Shown here: in pieces, positions 52,374 to 58,523 of the stretch
How the letters are laid out: the number at the start of each line of letters is the position of its first letter
How positions within the stretch are numbered: position 1 is the stretch's first letter
DNA from: Candidatus Poribacteria bacterium
GTDB taxonomy: Bacteria; Poribacteria; WGA-4E; WGA-3G
Direction of reading: 5' to 3'
Assembly (NCBI GenBank): GCA_965214095.1
Contig: OZ243938.1
Location: forward strand, 3,072,001-3,136,000
DNA: 64,000 bases
Notes under the pieces: generated by a model
Database searches by the model: none
Seen by the model: the letters and a program-made list of their open reading frames with translations, nothing else
What the model was told of the DNA's origin: nothing
Position numbers and translations under genes: made by a program

Positions 52374-52416
52374 TCTGCTCCTCTACTTCTCTGACTGTGA
52401 TACGGCAAAATAGGCT

Positions 52417-52866
52417 TTAATACGACCCTTCAGTCGTTTTGGCACTTTCAGCCTCTTCATATTTGGAAGCACACTTCGTGGTTACCTTATTGGCAATTAT
52501 TACGTTCTGTTTCGCATCGTATTTGCCTTCAACAAAAACATTGCCGCCATCAATGAAGTTATCGGGTTTAAGCTTGTTATAAATCACGTTGACTGTCTCG
52601 GTGTCTTCAATCTTTGTTTCAGTTTCTTCAAGTTCACGCACAGCAAAGGTTAACTTAAATTCGTCTGCATTCCATTTAGTGCTCTCTTCAGAGATGGCAC
52701 CAACAAGCTGCACATTTTGATTATCCATAGTTTCAGCATTGGCAATAAGTTTCACAGGTGTCAACTCCCGCATACTCTCTTTTTTTGTCATCGCTAATAC
52801 TAAAATCACGAAACCGCTGAGCAAAATAAGACTGGCTGCAAATACTTTTAGTCTTCTCTGTTTCAT
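52417..52866 (-). CDS. ccmE: Heme chaperone CcmE (CxxxY variant)
   Basis: TM, KPDNF...VFVEG, TKCASKY; AGGAGG RBS before ATG 52866. Confidence 0.85.
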   Translation of the reverse strand: MKQRRLKVFAASLILLSGFVILVLAMTKKESMRELTPVKLIANAETMDNQNVQLVGAISEESTKWNADEFKLTFAVRELEETETKIEDTETVNVIYNKLKPDNFIDGGNVFVEGKYDAKQNVIIANKVTTKCASKYEEAESAKTTEGSY

Positions 52867-53013
52867 GTGTTCATCCTCCTTGACATTACAAGTCTTTGAA
52901 AACACTCTCACCCAATAGACATGGGATACGTGTATAGAAATCTCCTTGTCTCTACTTTTGTCATTGAAACCAGTAAATCGGATGGGAATAAGTTCATTCT
53001 CCTTAAATAATAC

Positions 53014-53043
53014 TTGACTTTGTATTTAAAATCAAGGTAAAAT
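53014..53043 (+). promoter_or_regulatory. Putative sigma70 promoter of the DapA-like gene
   Basis: TTGACT-18 nt-TAAAAT. Confidence 0.4.
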
Positions 53044-53209
53044 AGATTCAAATTGAACTGTATTACGGAATTCCGTGTATATCCAAATATGAATCATTTC
53101 AGATTTACAGCTTTTCATAAAAAAAACATGTTCGTAGTCGCGCAATTCCTTGTGCCTCTTATATTGACCATATTCCCCATCTCAGATAAAGAGAGGTCTA
53201 GTATTACCC

Positions 53210-54157
53210 ATGAATTTTAATTGGCAGCATCACCCATGGGCAGGTGTATTCCCCGCAACCCTATGCCCTTTCCATTCAGATGAATCGATTGACGAAGAAG
53301 GTTTACGTCAGTATATGCAGGAACTTGCCAGTGTTGATGGCATAAAAGGTGTTGTCTGTAATGGACACACAGGTGAAATCATGTCCCTGCGTTTGCAGGA
53401 AAGACAACGTGTCACACAAATCACAGCAGAAGCAGTTGGTGATAAGGTTAAGGTTGTTTCTGGTATTAGTGCGGAAGGAAGTCTACCTGCAATTGACGAT
53501 GCACTCGCAGCGAAAGAAGCAGGTGCAGATGCAATTCTACTGATGCCTGCACATCACTGGTTGCGTTTCGGTAGAACACCTGAAACCGCAGTCGGCTATT
53601 TCCAAGATGTCGCAGAGGGCGCGGACATACCTATTATTGTGCATCAATATCCTGCTTGGACAAAAACTGGATATAGTCTTGAAGAGATGTCAGAGATGGT
53701 GAAAATCCCGCAAGTTGTCTGTATTAAAATGGGTACTCGTGATATGGCACGTTGGCGGTGGGATTATGAACAACTTAAAGAGGCTGCTCCTGAAGTGCCA
53801 ATCTTAACCTGCCATGATGAATATCTACTCGCTTCCCTATTAGAAGGTAGCGATGGTGCGCTTATCGGATTTGCAGGTTTTGTTCCCGAATTGATGGTGG
53901 CAGTAGTCCACGCCGCACTCAACAATGATTTGATAGGAGCACGTAAGGCACGTAATCAGGTTGATACATTGGCTCGGATTGTCTACAATTTCGGTGAACC
54001 GAGTAGTGATGCACATCAACGTATGAAATGTGCTAGATGGTTGATGGGCAGATTCCCATCAATGACCATGCGTCGCCCCTTGCGTCAATTGTTCACTTCT
54101 GAAATAGATAAAATTCGAAATGAGTTGGAGTCGGTTGGGTATCAATGTATTAACTAA
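53210..54157 (+). CDS. Dihydrodipicolinate synthase / N-acetylneuraminate lyase family class I aldolase
   Basis: NGHTGE, AKEAGADAILL, Schiff-base CIK, RRPL; divergent from true DapA. Confidence 0.85.
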   Translation: MNFNWQHHPWAGVFPATLCPFHSDESIDEEGLRQYMQELASVDGIKGVVCNGHTGEIMSLRLQERQRVTQITAEAVGDKVKVVSGISAEGSLPAIDDALAAKEAGADAILLMPAHHWLRFGRTPETAVGYFQDVAEGADIPIIVHQYPAWTKTGYSLEEMSEMVKIPQVVCIKMGTRDMARWRWDYEQLKEAAPEVPILTCHDEYLLASLLEGSDGALIGFAGFVPELMVAVVHAALNNDLIGARKARNQVDTLARIVYNFGEPSSDAHQRMKCARWLMGRFPSMTMRRPLRQLFTSEIDKIRNELESVGYQCIN

Positions 54158-54184
54158 ATATAATGGTTGATTGGATTAAGCACT

Positions 54185-55645
54185 CTACGGTGTTGAATTG
54201 TTGAGTTTTTGAAGTTGTTCCTCAATAAAAGTTTTGAGTTTTTGTTGTCCCTGCTGTTCTGCAAGTTCTAAGGCAGTTTGGAAATCTAAATTTGCGCCAT
54301 CAAAGTTTTTTAAGTTAACCTTTGCAGCACCGCGGTAGGTGAAGGATTCAGCATAGTCAGATTTAAGACGAATTGCTTCGGTGAAGTCAAGAATTGCAGA
54401 ATTGAGATCTCCTTGTCGCATTTTCTCAAATGCTCTATTGTAGTAAGCCATAGCATAACTTGGATTTATTCGAATTGCGTGTGTATAATCTGCTAGTGCT
54501 TGATTATGGTGCTTAAGCATGCTATGTGAAATACCTCTGTTGTTGTAAGCTTCTGCGTAATCAGGTTTTATACGAATAGCTTCGGAATAATCAACGAGTG
54601 CTTCTGCATGCTGACCTAATTTATCCTTTGAAAAACCGCGTAGATTATATGCCTCCGTGAAATCTGATTTTAGCTCAATTGCCTTATCATAATCTAAGAT
54701 AGCCCGCTCATGTTCTCCGAGTTCATTTTTGGTAGTTGCCCGAAAATAAAATATTTCGGATGACTCAATTCCTAACTCAATCGCTTCATCAAAATCAACA
54801 AGTGCTGATTTGTTTCTACCAAGATGTTTTTTCGCATATCCTCTAACAGCATAGGTTTTGACAAATGATGGATCTAACTTGATCACTATATCAAAATCAG
54901 CAATCGCGGATTCATGCTGTCCTGAACTACCCTTCACACAACCCCGTGTGAAGTAAAGTTCGGCAGAATCAGGACTTAACTCAATTGTCTTATCAAGATC
55001 AATAATTGCTTCTTCGTGTTTGCCAAGTTTTTGAAAGGTTACTCCTCGATTGTAGTAAGCCTCAAGAAAATTGGGGTTTAGTGCAATTGCGTTGCTATAA
55101 GCAAAAAGTGCTTTTTCTATCCTTTTCCCTTGATAGAGAAGAAAACCAATTGAGAAGAAAGCATAGGCAGCGAGATCGTCTTCAGTTCCAGTTTCAAATG
55201 TTTCTTTCTCGGCCAATTTCGGAGATTGTTCTGTCAGTTTAGGAACATAATTATCTTCGTAATCGTTAATGAGACGTATAACCAATTCCATTAACGGAGT
55301 TAATGGGTGATTCTCGTTGTCACCAACAGAATAGACTAATTCTTCAAGGACGTTATCAAGCCACTCATACTCGTCTTCTGTCAAATTGATGACACCGTAA
55401 TGTCCGTGTTGGTTTCCAAATTCGATTAATCCATCTAACACCTCTACTAACCATTGATAGGCACTTTCAGGATATGTTGTAGACACAATAGGGGTAGATC
55501 GGTGAATATGTGTCTGAATCTGTATAGGTTCAGCACTCGCGAACAATTGAGAATCGCTCGGAATCACATCGGATAATACAGGATCAGTTCTTAAATCCTT
55601 TAGCATTGGTGGTGTATTGAACGTATCTTGTGTATCCATCAACAT
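54185..55645 (-). CDS. HigA-like antitoxin region fused to nine TPR repeats
   Basis: TEDEYEWLDNVLEELVYSVGDNENHPLTPLMELVIRLINDYEDNYVP (HigA-like), then nine 34-aa TPRs (e.g. EAYYNRG, EAYNNRG); starts 3 nt after the higB stop. Confidence 0.75.
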   Translation of the reverse strand: MLMDTQDTFNTPPMLKDLRTDPVLSDVIPSDSQLFASAEPIQIQTHIHRSTPIVSTTYPESAYQWLVEVLDGLIEFGNQHGHYGVINLTEDEYEWLDNVLEELVYSVGDNENHPLTPLMELVIRLINDYEDNYVPKLTEQSPKLAEKETFETGTEDDLAAYAFFSIGFLLYQGKRIEKALFAYSNAIALNPNFLEAYYNRGVTFQKLGKHEEAIIDLDKTIELSPDSAELYFTRGCVKGSSGQHESAIADFDIVIKLDPSFVKTYAVRGYAKKHLGRNKSALVDFDEAIELGIESSEIFYFRATTKNELGEHERAILDYDKAIELKSDFTEAYNLRGFSKDKLGQHAEALVDYSEAIRIKPDYAEAYNNRGISHSMLKHHNQALADYTHAIRINPSYAMAYYNRAFEKMRQGDLNSAILDFTEAIRLKSDYAESFTYRGAAKVNLKNFDGANLDFQTALELAEQQGQQKLKTFIEEQLQKLNNSTP

Positions 55646-55648
55646 AAT

Positions 55649-55972
55649 TTACCTCTTCCAGCCGCCTCTATCATATTCTTCGTGTGTGAGCACGTGCATA
55701 ATAGAAACTTCATGCCTTTTGTAATTAATGAATGTTATAAGGCGTACACTCCTACCGATGTTGAAAACTGTCAATGTTGTTCTTTCCCCTGGTTGACTAA
55801 ACTTTCCTGGTCTTGCTGGGACTGGATCCGCTTGAGGAAACGTCTCACGCAAATCTGTAATAGATTCAAAAGTGTCTTCTTCCATCAACTTAGACCACCG
55901 CTCAAGTCTTTGTCTGGTAGTTGGATGTCTCTTTGCAAATCTATCCAGTTTTCTTCGTCCAGTTATATGCAT
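55649..55972 (-). CDS. higB: HigB family type II toxin (RelE superfamily mRNase)
   Basis: MHITGRRKLDRFAKRHP...W...DLRETFPQAD...VFNIG...RLITFINY...VLTHEEYDR. Confidence 0.88.
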   Translation of the reverse strand: MHITGRRKLDRFAKRHPTTRQRLERWSKLMEEDTFESITDLRETFPQADPVPARPGKFSQPGERTTLTVFNIGRSVRLITFINYKRHEVSIMHVLTHEEYDRGGWKR

Positions 55973-56028
55973 TAGTTATTTTGAGTAGGAACCTTTTTAT
56001 ATGTGCTTGCAGCGGTTTTTACAATATT

Positions 56029-56058
56029 ATTATACCATACCAAGCCCTAAGTTGTCAA
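56029..56058 (-). promoter_or_regulatory. Consensus sigma70 promoter for the higB-TPR operon
   Basis: Minus strand TTGACA-18 nt-TATAAT with TG extension. Confidence 0.7.
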
Positions 56059-56102
56059 AAATTGGATTAGTGATAGTATCTTAATGCCTGAAGAGATTAA
56101 AG

Positions 56103-56132
56103 TTGACTTTTAAATAGAAAATTAAATATAAT
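56103..56132 (+). promoter_or_regulatory. Putative sigma70 promoter for the oxidoreductase at 56229
   Basis: TTGACT-18 nt-TATAAT, divergent from the higB promoter. Confidence 0.55.
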
Positions 56133-56228
56133 GGTTAGATGAAAACAATCTATAATATGACTAAGGACCAGAGAATCGTGTATAAAGTCAGGCTTGTAGC
56201 ACAAACTATCCGAAACTTAAAATAGAAT

Positions 56229-57449
56229 ATGCCACAATTAAAATTAAAATATGCATTGATCGGACACGGACGACGCGGTTCGGCACATCTATCAACCGCA
56301 GCAGCACTAAAAGATACTTTTGAAATCGTCGCGGTCTGTGATGCACACCAAGGATCAGCAGAAGCAGGTGCAGCAAGAGTCGGTGTAAAAGCATACACCG
56401 ATGTCCGTAAGATGATTGACGAAACATCTCCTGATGTCTGTGATGTAGTCGTCCCTGTGCAACTACACCATATCGTATCCTGCTATCTCTCCCGTCGCGG
56501 CATCTCACATAACGTTGAAACAGGTCTTTCATCGACTCTCGGTTTGATGGATATGATGATAGCAGATGCTGCTGAAAATGGAGTAAAACTCCAAACATCA
56601 GAGAACTTCCCCTTTGTCCCCGTTGAACAGTTTGTCTGCAAACTTATTCACGAAGATGTAATAGGTATGGTACATAAGTGCTATCGTCTATTTTCCACAA
56701 CTGGCTACCACGGCCTTGCAGCAATACGGTGTAGGATGAACGCAGCCCCTACATCTGTAAGTAGTATAGGTCATTCGATGCCTGTTGTGCCTTATGTTGA
56801 CAGGGCAAAACGCGATTTCAATAGTGAAAGTCTTGAATTCTACGCAATCAATTTTGCCAGCGGTGGAATCGGCATAGCCATGGTAGGTAACAAGAACGGT
56901 TGTCTTGGACGTAATAAACTCGTCGGTTTTGAGACGTGCGGTGAACGCGGCACAATTATCACAAACGGCAACCAAGGTGCAACTGGAGGAGAAACCGTCA
57001 ACGTCTGCACCAACGAGGATATTAGTCAAAATGCAGGCAGAGCACAAACTTACGAATTTCAGAGAGAATATAGTGAGAATAAAGTGCTGCAACGCATTTA
57101 TGTGGAACTTCCCGAATCTCTCGGTGGCACGATTGAATGGCTTAATCCTTACAGGAATACTCAAATTTCCGAGGGTGGAATTTCACTCGCGACCATGCTT
57201 GATGGTATAGCAACCGCAGTGAGAGAGGACACACAACCGATCTGGACAGGAGAAATGGGTAGAGCGGATCAGGAGATGGTCATCGCAAGAAACCGTTCTG
57301 TCCAATCAAATCGGCAGCCTATTCAACTCCCACTCTCACCAGATCCAGCAGAAGAAGCAGCATTTGACCGAAATTTTAAGAAACAATTTGGGGTTCATCC
57401 CCGAGAAGATATTGAAAAAGCATTACAAGTAAATTTCAAAGCGCGTTAA
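56229..57449 (+). CDS. Gfo/Idh/MocA family oxidoreductase (divergent)
   Basis: ALIGHGRRGSAH, VAVCD; VETG in place of EKP; ENF. Confidence 0.8.
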   Translation: MPQLKLKYALIGHGRRGSAHLSTAAALKDTFEIVAVCDAHQGSAEAGAARVGVKAYTDVRKMIDETSPDVCDVVVPVQLHHIVSCYLSRRGISHNVETGLSSTLGLMDMMIADAAENGVKLQTSENFPFVPVEQFVCKLIHEDVIGMVHKCYRLFSTTGYHGLAAIRCRMNAAPTSVSSIGHSMPVVPYVDRAKRDFNSESLEFYAINFASGGIGIAMVGNKNGCLGRNKLVGFETCGERGTIITNGNQGATGGETVNVCTNEDISQNAGRAQTYEFQREYSENKVLQRIYVELPESLGGTIEWLNPYRNTQISEGGISLATMLDGIATAVREDTQPIWTGEMGRADQEMVIARNRSVQSNRQPIQLPLSPDPAEEAAFDRNFKKQFGVHPREDIEKALQVNFKAR

Positions 57450-57467
57450 AGAAATGTCAGATATATT

Positions 57468-57493
57468 GTAGGGTTGGGTCTCTGTGCCTACCC
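57468..57493 (+). repeat. GTAG REP-like hairpin
   Basis: GTAGGGTTGGGTCTCTGTGCCTACCC; same loop as the 59539 copy. Confidence 0.55.
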
Positions 57494-57551
57494 AAAATCG
57501 CAAGCAGTTATTGGATAGAGGTCTTACAAACCTAACAACAGAAGGTAAAAT

Positions 57552-58523
57552 ATGAAAGAAATTAAAATTGGTTTTATTGGATCAGGTGGCAACGCAAACG
57601 GACACATGAATCGGCTATCAGAAATGGAAGGTGCGAATGTCGTTGCAGTCTGCGATATAATAGAGCAAAAGGCACAAAATGCAGCTGAAAAACACAGTGC
57701 CGACCCTTATACTGATCACCGAGAAATGCTGGAACGGGATGATTTAGATGCTATCTATCTAAGTCTACCTGTGTTTGTTCATGGACAACCTGAGTTAGAC
57801 GTGATTGAACGTGGCTTACCATTCTTGGTTGAAAAACCCGTAGCAATTACCATGGACATCGCACGAGAAGTAGAAGCAGCAGTGACAAAAGCCGGATTGA
57901 TTACCTGTGTTGGCTATCAACTGCGTTATCTTGGTTCAACAAAGATAACCCAAGAAATCCTCGCAGGAAAAACAATCAACATGGCTGTCGGTAAGTACTG
58001 GTGTGGTACTGGGCGTGGTAATCCGGAAGGATGGTTGCGACAGATGAGTAAATCAGGGGGACAATTGGTTGAACAAGCCACGCACACAGTTGACATGATG
58101 CGTAACTTACTTGGTGAAGTGGATTCGGTCTTTGCGATGCAAGCAAATCGCACTCTCAAGGAGATTGATTGTCCAGATAGCAATAGCGTTTCACTACAAT
58201 TTTCCAGTGGTGCAGTCGGTTCTTTGACCGCAGCATGGGCGTATACTGGTGGTTGGGACAATGCCAATGTCTTAGATATCCTATATGATGGTGAAATGTT
58301 GAACTGGAATCCTGCAAGGGTCCATTGCAAAGAAGATGGTGAATGGGTAGAAAAAACAGATCCCGGTCCCACCATAGATGAAGTCTTTGTGAACGCAGTC
58401 CGTAGTGGTGATGCATCTCAGATATTGAGTCCCTATACCGATGCGGTCAAAACGCTTGCGATTTCACTCGCAGCAAATCTCTCTGCACAAGAAAATAGAC
58501 CGGTAGAACTTTCTTCGTTGTAA
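57552..58523 (+). CDS. Gfo/Idh/MocA family oxidoreductase
   Basis: IGFIGSGGNA, VEKP, VGYQLRY, SGGQLVEQATHTVD. Confidence 0.92.
   Translation: MKEIKIGFIGSGGNANGHMNRLSEMEGANVVAVCDIIEQKAQNAAEKHSADPYTDHREMLERDDLDAIYLSLPVFVHGQPELDVIERGLPFLVEKPVAITMDIAREVEAAVTKAGLITCVGYQLRYLGSTKITQEILAGKTINMAVGKYWCGTGRGNPEGWLRQMSKSGGQLVEQATHTVDMMRNLLGEVDSVFAMQANRTLKEIDCPDSNSVSLQFSSGAVGSLTAAWAYTGGWDNANVLDILYDGEMLNWNPARVHCKEDGEWVEKTDPGPTIDEVFVNAVRSGDASQILSPYTDAVKTLAISLAANLSAQENRPVELSSL

Follow-up and report, generated by a model that had tools for sequence, protein, structure and literature searches.

The window analysed here is a 64,000-nt stretch of a Candidatus Poribacteria genome (assembly GCA_965214095.1, contig OZ243938.1, positions 3,072,001 to 3,136,000), and its minus strand carries a higB gene (107 aa, 55649..55972) followed after a 3-nt gap by an open reading frame (ORF) for a 486-aa protein (54185..55645). 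We conclude, with a probability of roughly 0.8, that the two genes encode a type II toxin-antitoxin module in which the toxin is of the HigB (PF09907) kind and the antitoxin has been remodelled. In our model, HigB would be neutralised by a three-helix N-terminal head of the 486-aa partner. This head would descend from the toxin-binding N-domain of HigA, with one further helix gained that also touches the toxin, and a flexible linker would join it to a superhelix of nine tetratricopeptide repeats (TPRs) at the place where canonical HigA has its helix-turn-helix (HTH). Transcription of the operon would start, probably constitutively, at a near-consensus promoter that is conserved. The amount of free HigB would then be controlled post-translationally, depending on how stable the TPR protein is or which conformation it adopts. 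The TPR arm would serve as a protein-binding platform, and either a ligand on this arm or proteolysis at the disordered N terminus or the linker would free HigB, such that translation would stop. Homology, gene position, structure prediction and the pattern of toxin decay all lend good support to reading the pair as toxin and antitoxin and to the role assigned to the head. That HigB is toxic and is neutralised by its partner we infer from sequence.

The toxin gene comes first, the antitoxin gene lies directly 3′ of it, and just these two genes are found between the flanking genes. An earlier reading of this DNA (the original prediction) had described higB and, 3 nt later, a 486-aa protein, in agreement with the ORF coordinates. 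HigB matched PF09907 (HigB_toxin) with E=2e-18 and 66.9 bits against a cut-off of 27, over profile positions 2–73 of 74, and was aligned along its full length with the E. coli/Shigella HigB structures 5ifg_A and 5ycl_B (E about 0.01). In this alignment the VFN.G and TH.EYD motifs are identical to those of E. coli HigB, and F70, N71, G73, R77, H97 and Y100 were invariant in 38 family members. Proteins of the HigB family are ribosome-dependent mRNA endonucleases, and by its sequence the window HigB is a member of PF09907, within the RelE/ParE superfamily. HigB had also been credited with an extra loop, which was confirmed in that ten residues within positions 52–64 lie opposite gaps in 5ifg_A and 5ycl_B; this loop varies in length within the family.

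A HigA-like toxin-binding segment had been proposed for the 486-aa protein, and three comparisons point the same way. A profile of 72 family members was aligned by hhalign with the genome's own canonical HigA (124 aa), which itself matches E. coli HigA 5ifg_B at 2e-4; residues 88–138 of the window protein were paired with HigA residues 7–54 (48 columns, E=2.1e-5, probability 77%). When residues 1–159 were compared with 1.84 billion representative proteins there were 158 matches at E≤1e-3, many of them proteins of 57–80 aa that have one motif, TE.EY..L...LD.LID.VGE.E.HPL..LME..G.LIE.YED.H.PEL, and end just after it. A bridge is formed by P0203 (135 aa; match to the window domain at E=3.5e-4), in which the same motif precedes an HTH; this HTH aligns with E. 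coli HigA 5ifg_B at the equivalent position (4e-8). In a Foldseek search with the head-domain model, E. coli/Shigella HigA chains took seven of the top eight ranks, at non-significant E-values of 0.8–2.8. The head domain is thus likely, from these comparisons, to be a distant homologue of the toxin-binding N-domain of HigA. Residues 1–159 alone matched no Pfam family at E≤10 and no PDB sequence in a meaningful way, and a wide structure search with VIA-align was uninformative, returning generic helical bundles alone (Z at most 7.5).

The canonical HigA of this genome follows a second higB (G000:C1:2232187-2232408; L002:1099-1776) that matches PF09907 at E=2e-30 and contains an in-frame TAG stop codon. 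This intact 124-aa HigA, with its HTH, is an orphaned conventional antitoxin.

The structure of the complex, whose prediction had been suggested as a check, was modelled by folding HigB (alignment of 38) with residues 50–150 of its partner (alignment of 44). The complex attained a median ipSAE of 0.85, whereas none of three controls exceeded 0.01; in calibration, 58 of 80 solved complexes and 2 of 110 mismatched pairs passed the mark. Prediction runs agreed in at least 88% of contacts, and the predicted local distance difference test (pLDDT) score of the partner was at least 81. On the partner side the predicted interface comprised residues 58–66, from the extra first helix, together with 93–115 and 123–138, and on the HigB side residues 2–31, 53–59 (the extra loop), 65 and 81–92. 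The head domain is thus predicted to bind HigB. As solved HigBA complexes exist, the pass may reflect likeness to them.

An AlphaFold2 model of the 486-aa protein, built on 44 homologues, had a mean pLDDT of 85.7. Residues 1–52 were disordered, the helices of the head spanned residues 60–80, 90–107 and 116–132, and an unbroken TPR superhelix extended from residue 155 to 484 after a low-confidence linker. In Pfam and NCBIfam the protein matched TPR families only (TPR_1, E=3e-59), with repeats from about residue 160. No HTH family was matched in these databases; a lone winged-HTH row had E=0.2 and fell inside the TPRs. Nine 34-residue units could be placed by hand from the model helices, with a mean pairwise identity of 33%, so that the protein has the nine TPRs, without an HTH, that had been read from its sequence. 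Full-length Foldseek comparison returned TPR proteins only; at the top were 9qhb, a consensus TPR structure (29% identity, E=3e-15), and the O-GlcNAc transferase TPR domain. At the C terminus, 44 proteins share the tail consensus ALELAEQQGN..LK..E..LQELNN, in which L481 is at least 90% conserved.

The first helix, ESAYQWLVEVLDGLI, corresponds to helix 60–80 of the model. It had been described as a second, degenerate copy of the first helix of the HigA-like segment. The element itself is real and conserved in 44 proteins, with W65 invariant and Y58, E60, S61, L66, L70 and L73 at least 90% conserved across this region. Inspection by eye showed 6 of 13 residues in common with helix 2, and an origin by duplication is no more than possible. 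Tandem Repeats Finder detected no tandem repeat at the DNA level in the TPR region, and recent repeat duplication in the window copy was rejected on that ground. Four metatranscriptome runs from one study yielded contigs 90–95% identical to this region, including higB, the partner gene and intergenic DNA. Contigs cannot demonstrate transcription, and DNA carry-over may have occurred; they were not used as evidence. One contig skips 276 bases at 54282–54559, with 72 other letters between, as would fit a relative whose copy of the locus differs in its number of repeats.

Searching for the head joined to TPRs beside higB in other genomes had been proposed, and we found that the arrangement recurs widely. 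A word-indexed search with residues 1–160 identified 65 head-TPR proteins (273–474 aa) at E≤1e-3 among 353 candidates, all 65 with TPR domains. The related loci came from Candidatus Poribacteria, where a head-domain match was present in 126 of 176 genomes of the phylum (97 of the 133 high-quality genomes) and, within the window's own family, in 105 of 111 genomes, with up to eight matches per genome; the window copy is the sole head-domain match in its own genome. Sampled proteins with the head domain ranged from 126 to 847 aa, and 42 of the 44 matched TPR families, the two exceptions being short forms; across the family the head is joined to from 2 to about 20 TPRs. Viral contigs gave a single distant match, to a short form. 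Since head-TPR genes stand beside higB in many genomes, the fusion is not a one-off. These putative antitoxins form a large, apparently undescribed family that is expanded in sponge-associated Candidatus Poribacteria.

Among the 29 best loci of other genomes, 20 have an intact higB immediately before the partner gene, and in one (L011) the contig ends within higB; of 20 loci of more distant paralogues, 17 have higB in this position. A spacing of 3 nt separates higB from its partner in 25 of 31 pairs with a recorded gap (37 intact higB genes were listed). In 8 of the 28 assessable best loci higB was lost or broken. Three of these genes were interrupted by inserts (L004, 990–1425, 436 bp; L006, 450–1434, 985 bp; L007, 2134–3286, 1153 bp), those of L016 and L030 were frame-disrupted, a remnant of about 25 residues was left in L021 and L029, and higB was absent from L014. 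At such loci the TPR reading frames were free of internal stops. The three inserts differ from one another. By eye, the two longer ones have long opposite-strand ORFs and resemble insertion sequences (IS), whereas the 436-bp insert lacks coding sequence and contains a hairpin-like repeat twice.

Several observations weigh against the interpretation of the pair as a HigB module with a HigA-derived antitoxin. The hhalign probability is just 77%, the Foldseek E-values for HigA are not significant, and the head-domain profile searched against PDB sequences gave neither a HigA match nor any other meaningful match. The invariant HigB residues R77, H97 and Y100 lie outside the predicted interface. 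No positive selection was found in the TPRs, as no dN/dS ratio (nonsynonymous to synonymous substitution) exceeded 1 in three sequences analysed by a crude method. There is also an orphan class of head-TPR proteins (roughly 290–360 aa), present in about 23 genomes as judged by ORF size and match range, in which higB was missing from all five loci examined. These orphans suggest that the protein may have a role beyond holding its neighbour. In one orphan locus (L038) the gene directly follows a Type ISP gene, overlapping its end.

An orphan class that is conserved in many genomes would be expected if the main role of the TPR protein lay outside the pair, for instance in sponge symbiosis, with HigB as an addiction partner that stabilises inheritance. 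TPRs are enriched in sponge symbionts, in keeping with such a role. We consider this explanation improbable: the head is the most conserved part of the protein and is predicted to bind HigB, the 3-nt coupling to higB is the rule, and inspection of the N terminus by eye, without a predictor, revealed no signal peptide or other secretion signal.

The perfect-consensus promoter that had been reported upstream of higB was found as a 12/12 match. The region contained 9 promoter-like sites against a shuffled mean of 7.0, a difference in count that is not significant, with a single 12/12 site. A single site therefore carries little weight, and conservation across the family is the stronger argument for this promoter. 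Of 38 family higB genes, 25 are preceded by a match of at least 11/12, mostly 48–62 nt before the start codon, and the near-consensus promoter is thus supported as a family trait. It was retained in L008 and L009 despite unrelated sequence further upstream, and therefore appears to travel with the module. As in the original prediction, no operator palindrome was apparent near the promoter or in the leader (55950–56230), where the sole inverted pair has arms 228 nt apart. With neither an HTH nor a palindrome, and with a strong promoter that is conserved, the module would lack autoregulation, and the antitoxin probably cannot repress its own promoter. A second strong promoter-like site (56103–56132, plus strand, TTGACT-18-TATAAT, 11/12) faces in the opposite direction, with the oxidoreductase-like gene (56229) ahead of it.

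Outside Poribacteria the core module of the head (residues 89–139) occurs as an HTH-less ORF of ~75 aa after higB, in Chloroflexota, Latescibacterota, cyanobacteria, Acidobacteriota, Desulfobacterota, Planctomycetota and Verrucomicrobiota. A HigB-profile match lay directly upstream in 24 of 46 short-form loci (L099–L144, a few of them from Poribacteria), a count in which the misses may stem from simple ORF calling and contig ends. The occurrence of this form in other phyla indicates that absence of the HTH predates the TPR fusion and extends more widely. It is therefore not special to the fusion, which corrects an earlier note.

In that the ~75-aa form shows the head alone partnering higB, it lends itself to a reading in which the TPR arm senses nothing and instead stabilises, oligomerises or scaffolds the antitoxin in place of the HTH dimer. 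The arm might then tune the half-life or stoichiometry of the antitoxin, or tether two toxins, and the module would be a selfish addiction cassette. Frequent toxin decay and multi-copy spread are typical of selfish toxin-antitoxin modules, and the window repeats lie near the TPR consensus, being 29–31% identical to designed consensus TPR (CTPR) proteins. This remains a tentative explanation in our view, as the long arrays stay open under purifying selection (framework dN/dS 0.11–0.20), the C-terminal tail is conserved and orphan copies persist without a toxin, all of which argue for a function of the arm itself.

A scaffold would also fit the bivalent forms of the family. In some members the TPRs are followed by an extra tail (..GGQWKGKVKI.EDFDELPESF..) that is weakly DUF2281-like (E=0.029, below threshold), and at several loci a PIN/VapC gene (PF01850, E=1e-15 to 4e-17) overlaps the end of the tail-bearing TPR gene by 4 nt. 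One protein with such a VapB-like tail may act as antitoxin to two different toxins. A small staphylococcal-nuclease-like gene adjoins modules of the family at two loci (L074:2753-3220, PF00565, E=1.7e-6; L038:4073-4516, by eye).

Other relatives are linked to restriction. A class of ~360 aa combines the head and one or two TPRs with an HSDR_N_2-like (restriction-endonuclease-like) C terminus, a match that is sub-threshold in the three proteins concerned (18.5–22.6 bits against a cut-off of 25), and higB was upstream in 5 of 8 loci of this class. We also retrieved 20 loci with larger flanks, which are the next-best head-domain matches rather than a random sample and come mostly from a sister genus. 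A Type ISP restriction enzyme gene or fragment was directly upstream in 15 of these 20 (Type_ISP_C, E=5e-100 for L069), nine had a tail-bearing TPR protein and four a PIN gene, and tandem second higB–TPR pairs were common (L148, L151, L160 and L163). In the window's genome, the closest Type ISP gene (C1:989242-992262) has no higB–TPR pair after it.

Placement of the module behind a Type ISP gene in this selected set is one reason to consider sensor-gated abortive infection, the reading of the original prediction, in which a phage protein in the TPR groove would loosen the head and HigB would halt translation before the phage cycle ends. HigB also matches the PADLOC model PD-Lambda-2_A (E=1.2e-13), and the HigB of a toxin-antitoxin-chaperone module is reportedly activated by a lambda tail protein (10.1101/2025.01.28.635273). 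Variation in TPR number, from about 2 to 20, is a further point in favour. A phage-sensing role of the TPRs is thus plausible, but the complete scenario is one that we hold only as possible; TPRs are very common in the phylum for other reasons, and the single distant match in viral contigs offers it little.

The position of the window copy cuts both ways. The original prediction had placed the pair as an insertion between catabolic genes, and a DNA search of the genus with window 52400–58500 supported an insertion, in that the pair occupies a variable site; the labels of the flanking genes are by eye. In seven genomes (G079, G085, G090, G094, G098, G100 and G110) the flanking genes are 50–190 bp apart with nothing between them, the higB–TPR pair occupies the site in five (G000, G091, G093, G096 and G103), and at least 12 have 1.3–6.8 kb of other DNA there. 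Five ORFs scanned from this other cargo comprised two WD40 proteins, one trypsin-like peptidase and two without a family match. Location in a variable site is in keeping with phage sensing, whereas the lack of defence neighbours and the WD40 and protease cargo found elsewhere are not, and a defence island at the window site was rejected because of that cargo. The variable spot corresponds to window 54158–56228 (matching sites L053–L064), its WD40 proteins are 625–867 aa long, and two short ORFs in the other cargo were taken as IS-related by eye.

Selection was examined by a crude Nei-Gojobori estimate on three 588-aa orthologues, with TPR synonymous sites near saturation in two pairs, which makes the estimate weak evidence. 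The dN/dS ratio was 0.15–0.19 for the head, 0.11–0.20 for the TPR framework, 0.18–0.79 for variable helix-A positions and 0.55–0.66 for the N-terminal segment (residues 1–54). A sensor of phage proteins is not helped by these values, in which positive selection was not detected. It draws some support from discordant dS between head and TPR array (0.55 for the head and 1.40 for the array in one pair, 0.84 and 0.32 in a second), a hint from three sequences that arrays are exchanged between loci by recombination.

A role in sensing or defence is favoured by the restriction-gene link, the variation in repeat number, the array exchange that may occur between loci and the known case of HigB modules triggered by phage. 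The minimal forms, near-consensus repeats, bivalent forms and orphans are no less compatible with a scaffold or with an independent function. A broader and more doubtful proposal is that head-TPR proteins are modular innate-immune receptors, holding HigB at the head and sometimes VapC at the tail, that are fired by a phage protein or another foreign protein in the TPR groove, with arrays exchanged for specificity. If true, this would be a new coupling of recognition to toxin release without transcriptional control, a protease or a nucleotide signal.

Table 1. Positions of the module, its borders and related loci. Unprefixed positions refer to the window; prefixed ones refer to the locus named.
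Feature	Position	Strand	Basis or remark
Promoter, sigma-70-type: TTGACA, 18-nt spacer, TG-extended TATAAT	56029..56058	-	12/12 match
higB 5′ untranslated leader	55973..56028	-	Sequence kept among window, L005, L010, L009 and L008
higB, putative RelE-superfamily mRNA interferase toxin, stop included	55649..55972	-	PF09907
Antitoxin residues 1–54, probably disordered N-terminal segment	55484..55645	-	pLDDT 28–54 (AlphaFold2)
Antitoxin residues 55–146, predicted three-helix HigB-binding domain and KLTE..P.LAE	55208..55483	-	AlphaFold2, hhalign, predicted interface
Antitoxin residues 147–159, flexible acidic linker	55169..55207	-	pLDDT <50 at 147–152
Antitoxin residues 160–465, nine TPRs, superhelix	54251..55168	-	TPR_1 E=3e-59, pLDDT >90
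Antitoxin residues 466–486 and stop, conserved capping tail (..GQQKLKTFIEEQLQKLNNSTP)	54185..54250	-	44-protein consensus
Left border gene, 315-aa ORF, 'DapA-like', convergent with antitoxin	53210..54157	+	ORF; label by eye
Right border gene, 406-aa ORF, 'Gfo/Idh/MocA-like oxidoreductase'	56229..57449	+	ORF, synteny; label by eye
Orphan head-TPR loci without higB	L036:4982-6046, L038:2974-3936, L067:2501-3493, L072:2468-3409, L073:2420-3298		
Three-gene modules, higB / head-TPR-tail / PIN	L069:2171-4698, L071:2171-4794, L074:346-2726; also L147, L150, L154, L160		
HSDR_N_2-like class	L079:2441-3553, L080:2441-3529, L084:2357-3439		
Type ISP-linked modules	L145-L163, e.g. L147:40-3126, L160:9-3128		Larger-flank loci

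The closest known system is HigBA of E. coli K-12 and Shigella (5ifg, 5ycl and 6kml), which has the same toxin family and toxin-first order, and an antitoxin whose N-terminal helical segment is likely homologous to the head by profile, via the genome's own HigA. In the window protein the XRE-type HTH is absent and nine TPRs stand in its place, the locus has no operator palindrome, the extra helix 60–80 is predicted to contact HigB, and HigB has a longer, variable loop at about residues 51–64. The minimal ~75-aa HTH-less proteins share the core motif of residues 89–139 and the position 3 nt after higB, but they end right after the motif and have neither TPRs nor the extra first helix. None of 10 tested minimal proteins had a Pfam match at the gathering score, and no description of them was found. 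Our literature search also found no published description of HigB with a TPR-fused antitoxin; the main text of a RelE/ParE toxin survey preprint contains no instance of 'TPR', and its supplementary tables might list such partners.

Two phage-related HigB systems can be compared with the window module. In HigBAC, a phage lambda tail protein is reported to activate HigB by disturbing the partner of the antitoxin (10.1101/2025.01.28.635273). Both systems combine a HigB-type toxin with an antitoxin that has an additional protein-binding element, which in HigBAC is a separate SecB-like chaperone gene and in the window module is a TPR array fused in cis. No third, chaperone gene is present in the window module, in that only two genes lie between the flanks, the flanking genes themselves not having been searched for the SecB family. 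The window HigB also resembles component A of PD-lambda-2 in PADLOC, as noted above. Unlike PD-lambda-2, the window module has a 486-aa partner that matches no component, no third gene, and a next downstream gene that is convergent. Against PADLOC as a whole, the partner matched weak generic TPR models only (E=5e-4 at best).

TPR arrays joined to a cell-stopping effector are also found in immune sensors such as the Avs/STAND NTPases and the TPR-CHAT of Craspase. The 486-aa protein differs from these in having no NTPase (NACHT/NB-ARC) or protease domain, and its effector is a separate small RNase that is predicted to be held non-covalently. Some of the excess of TPR proteins for which Poribacteria are known may derive from toxin-antitoxin or defence modules and not from host interaction. 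Type II antitoxins usually consist of a toxin-binding segment and a DNA-binding domain that autoregulates the operon. The family described here keeps the toxin-binding segment and swaps the DNA-binding domain for a repeat arm of very variable length, sometimes with a second toxin-binding tail and toxin added. It offers a testable case in which protein recognition, in place of transcription, may control toxin release.

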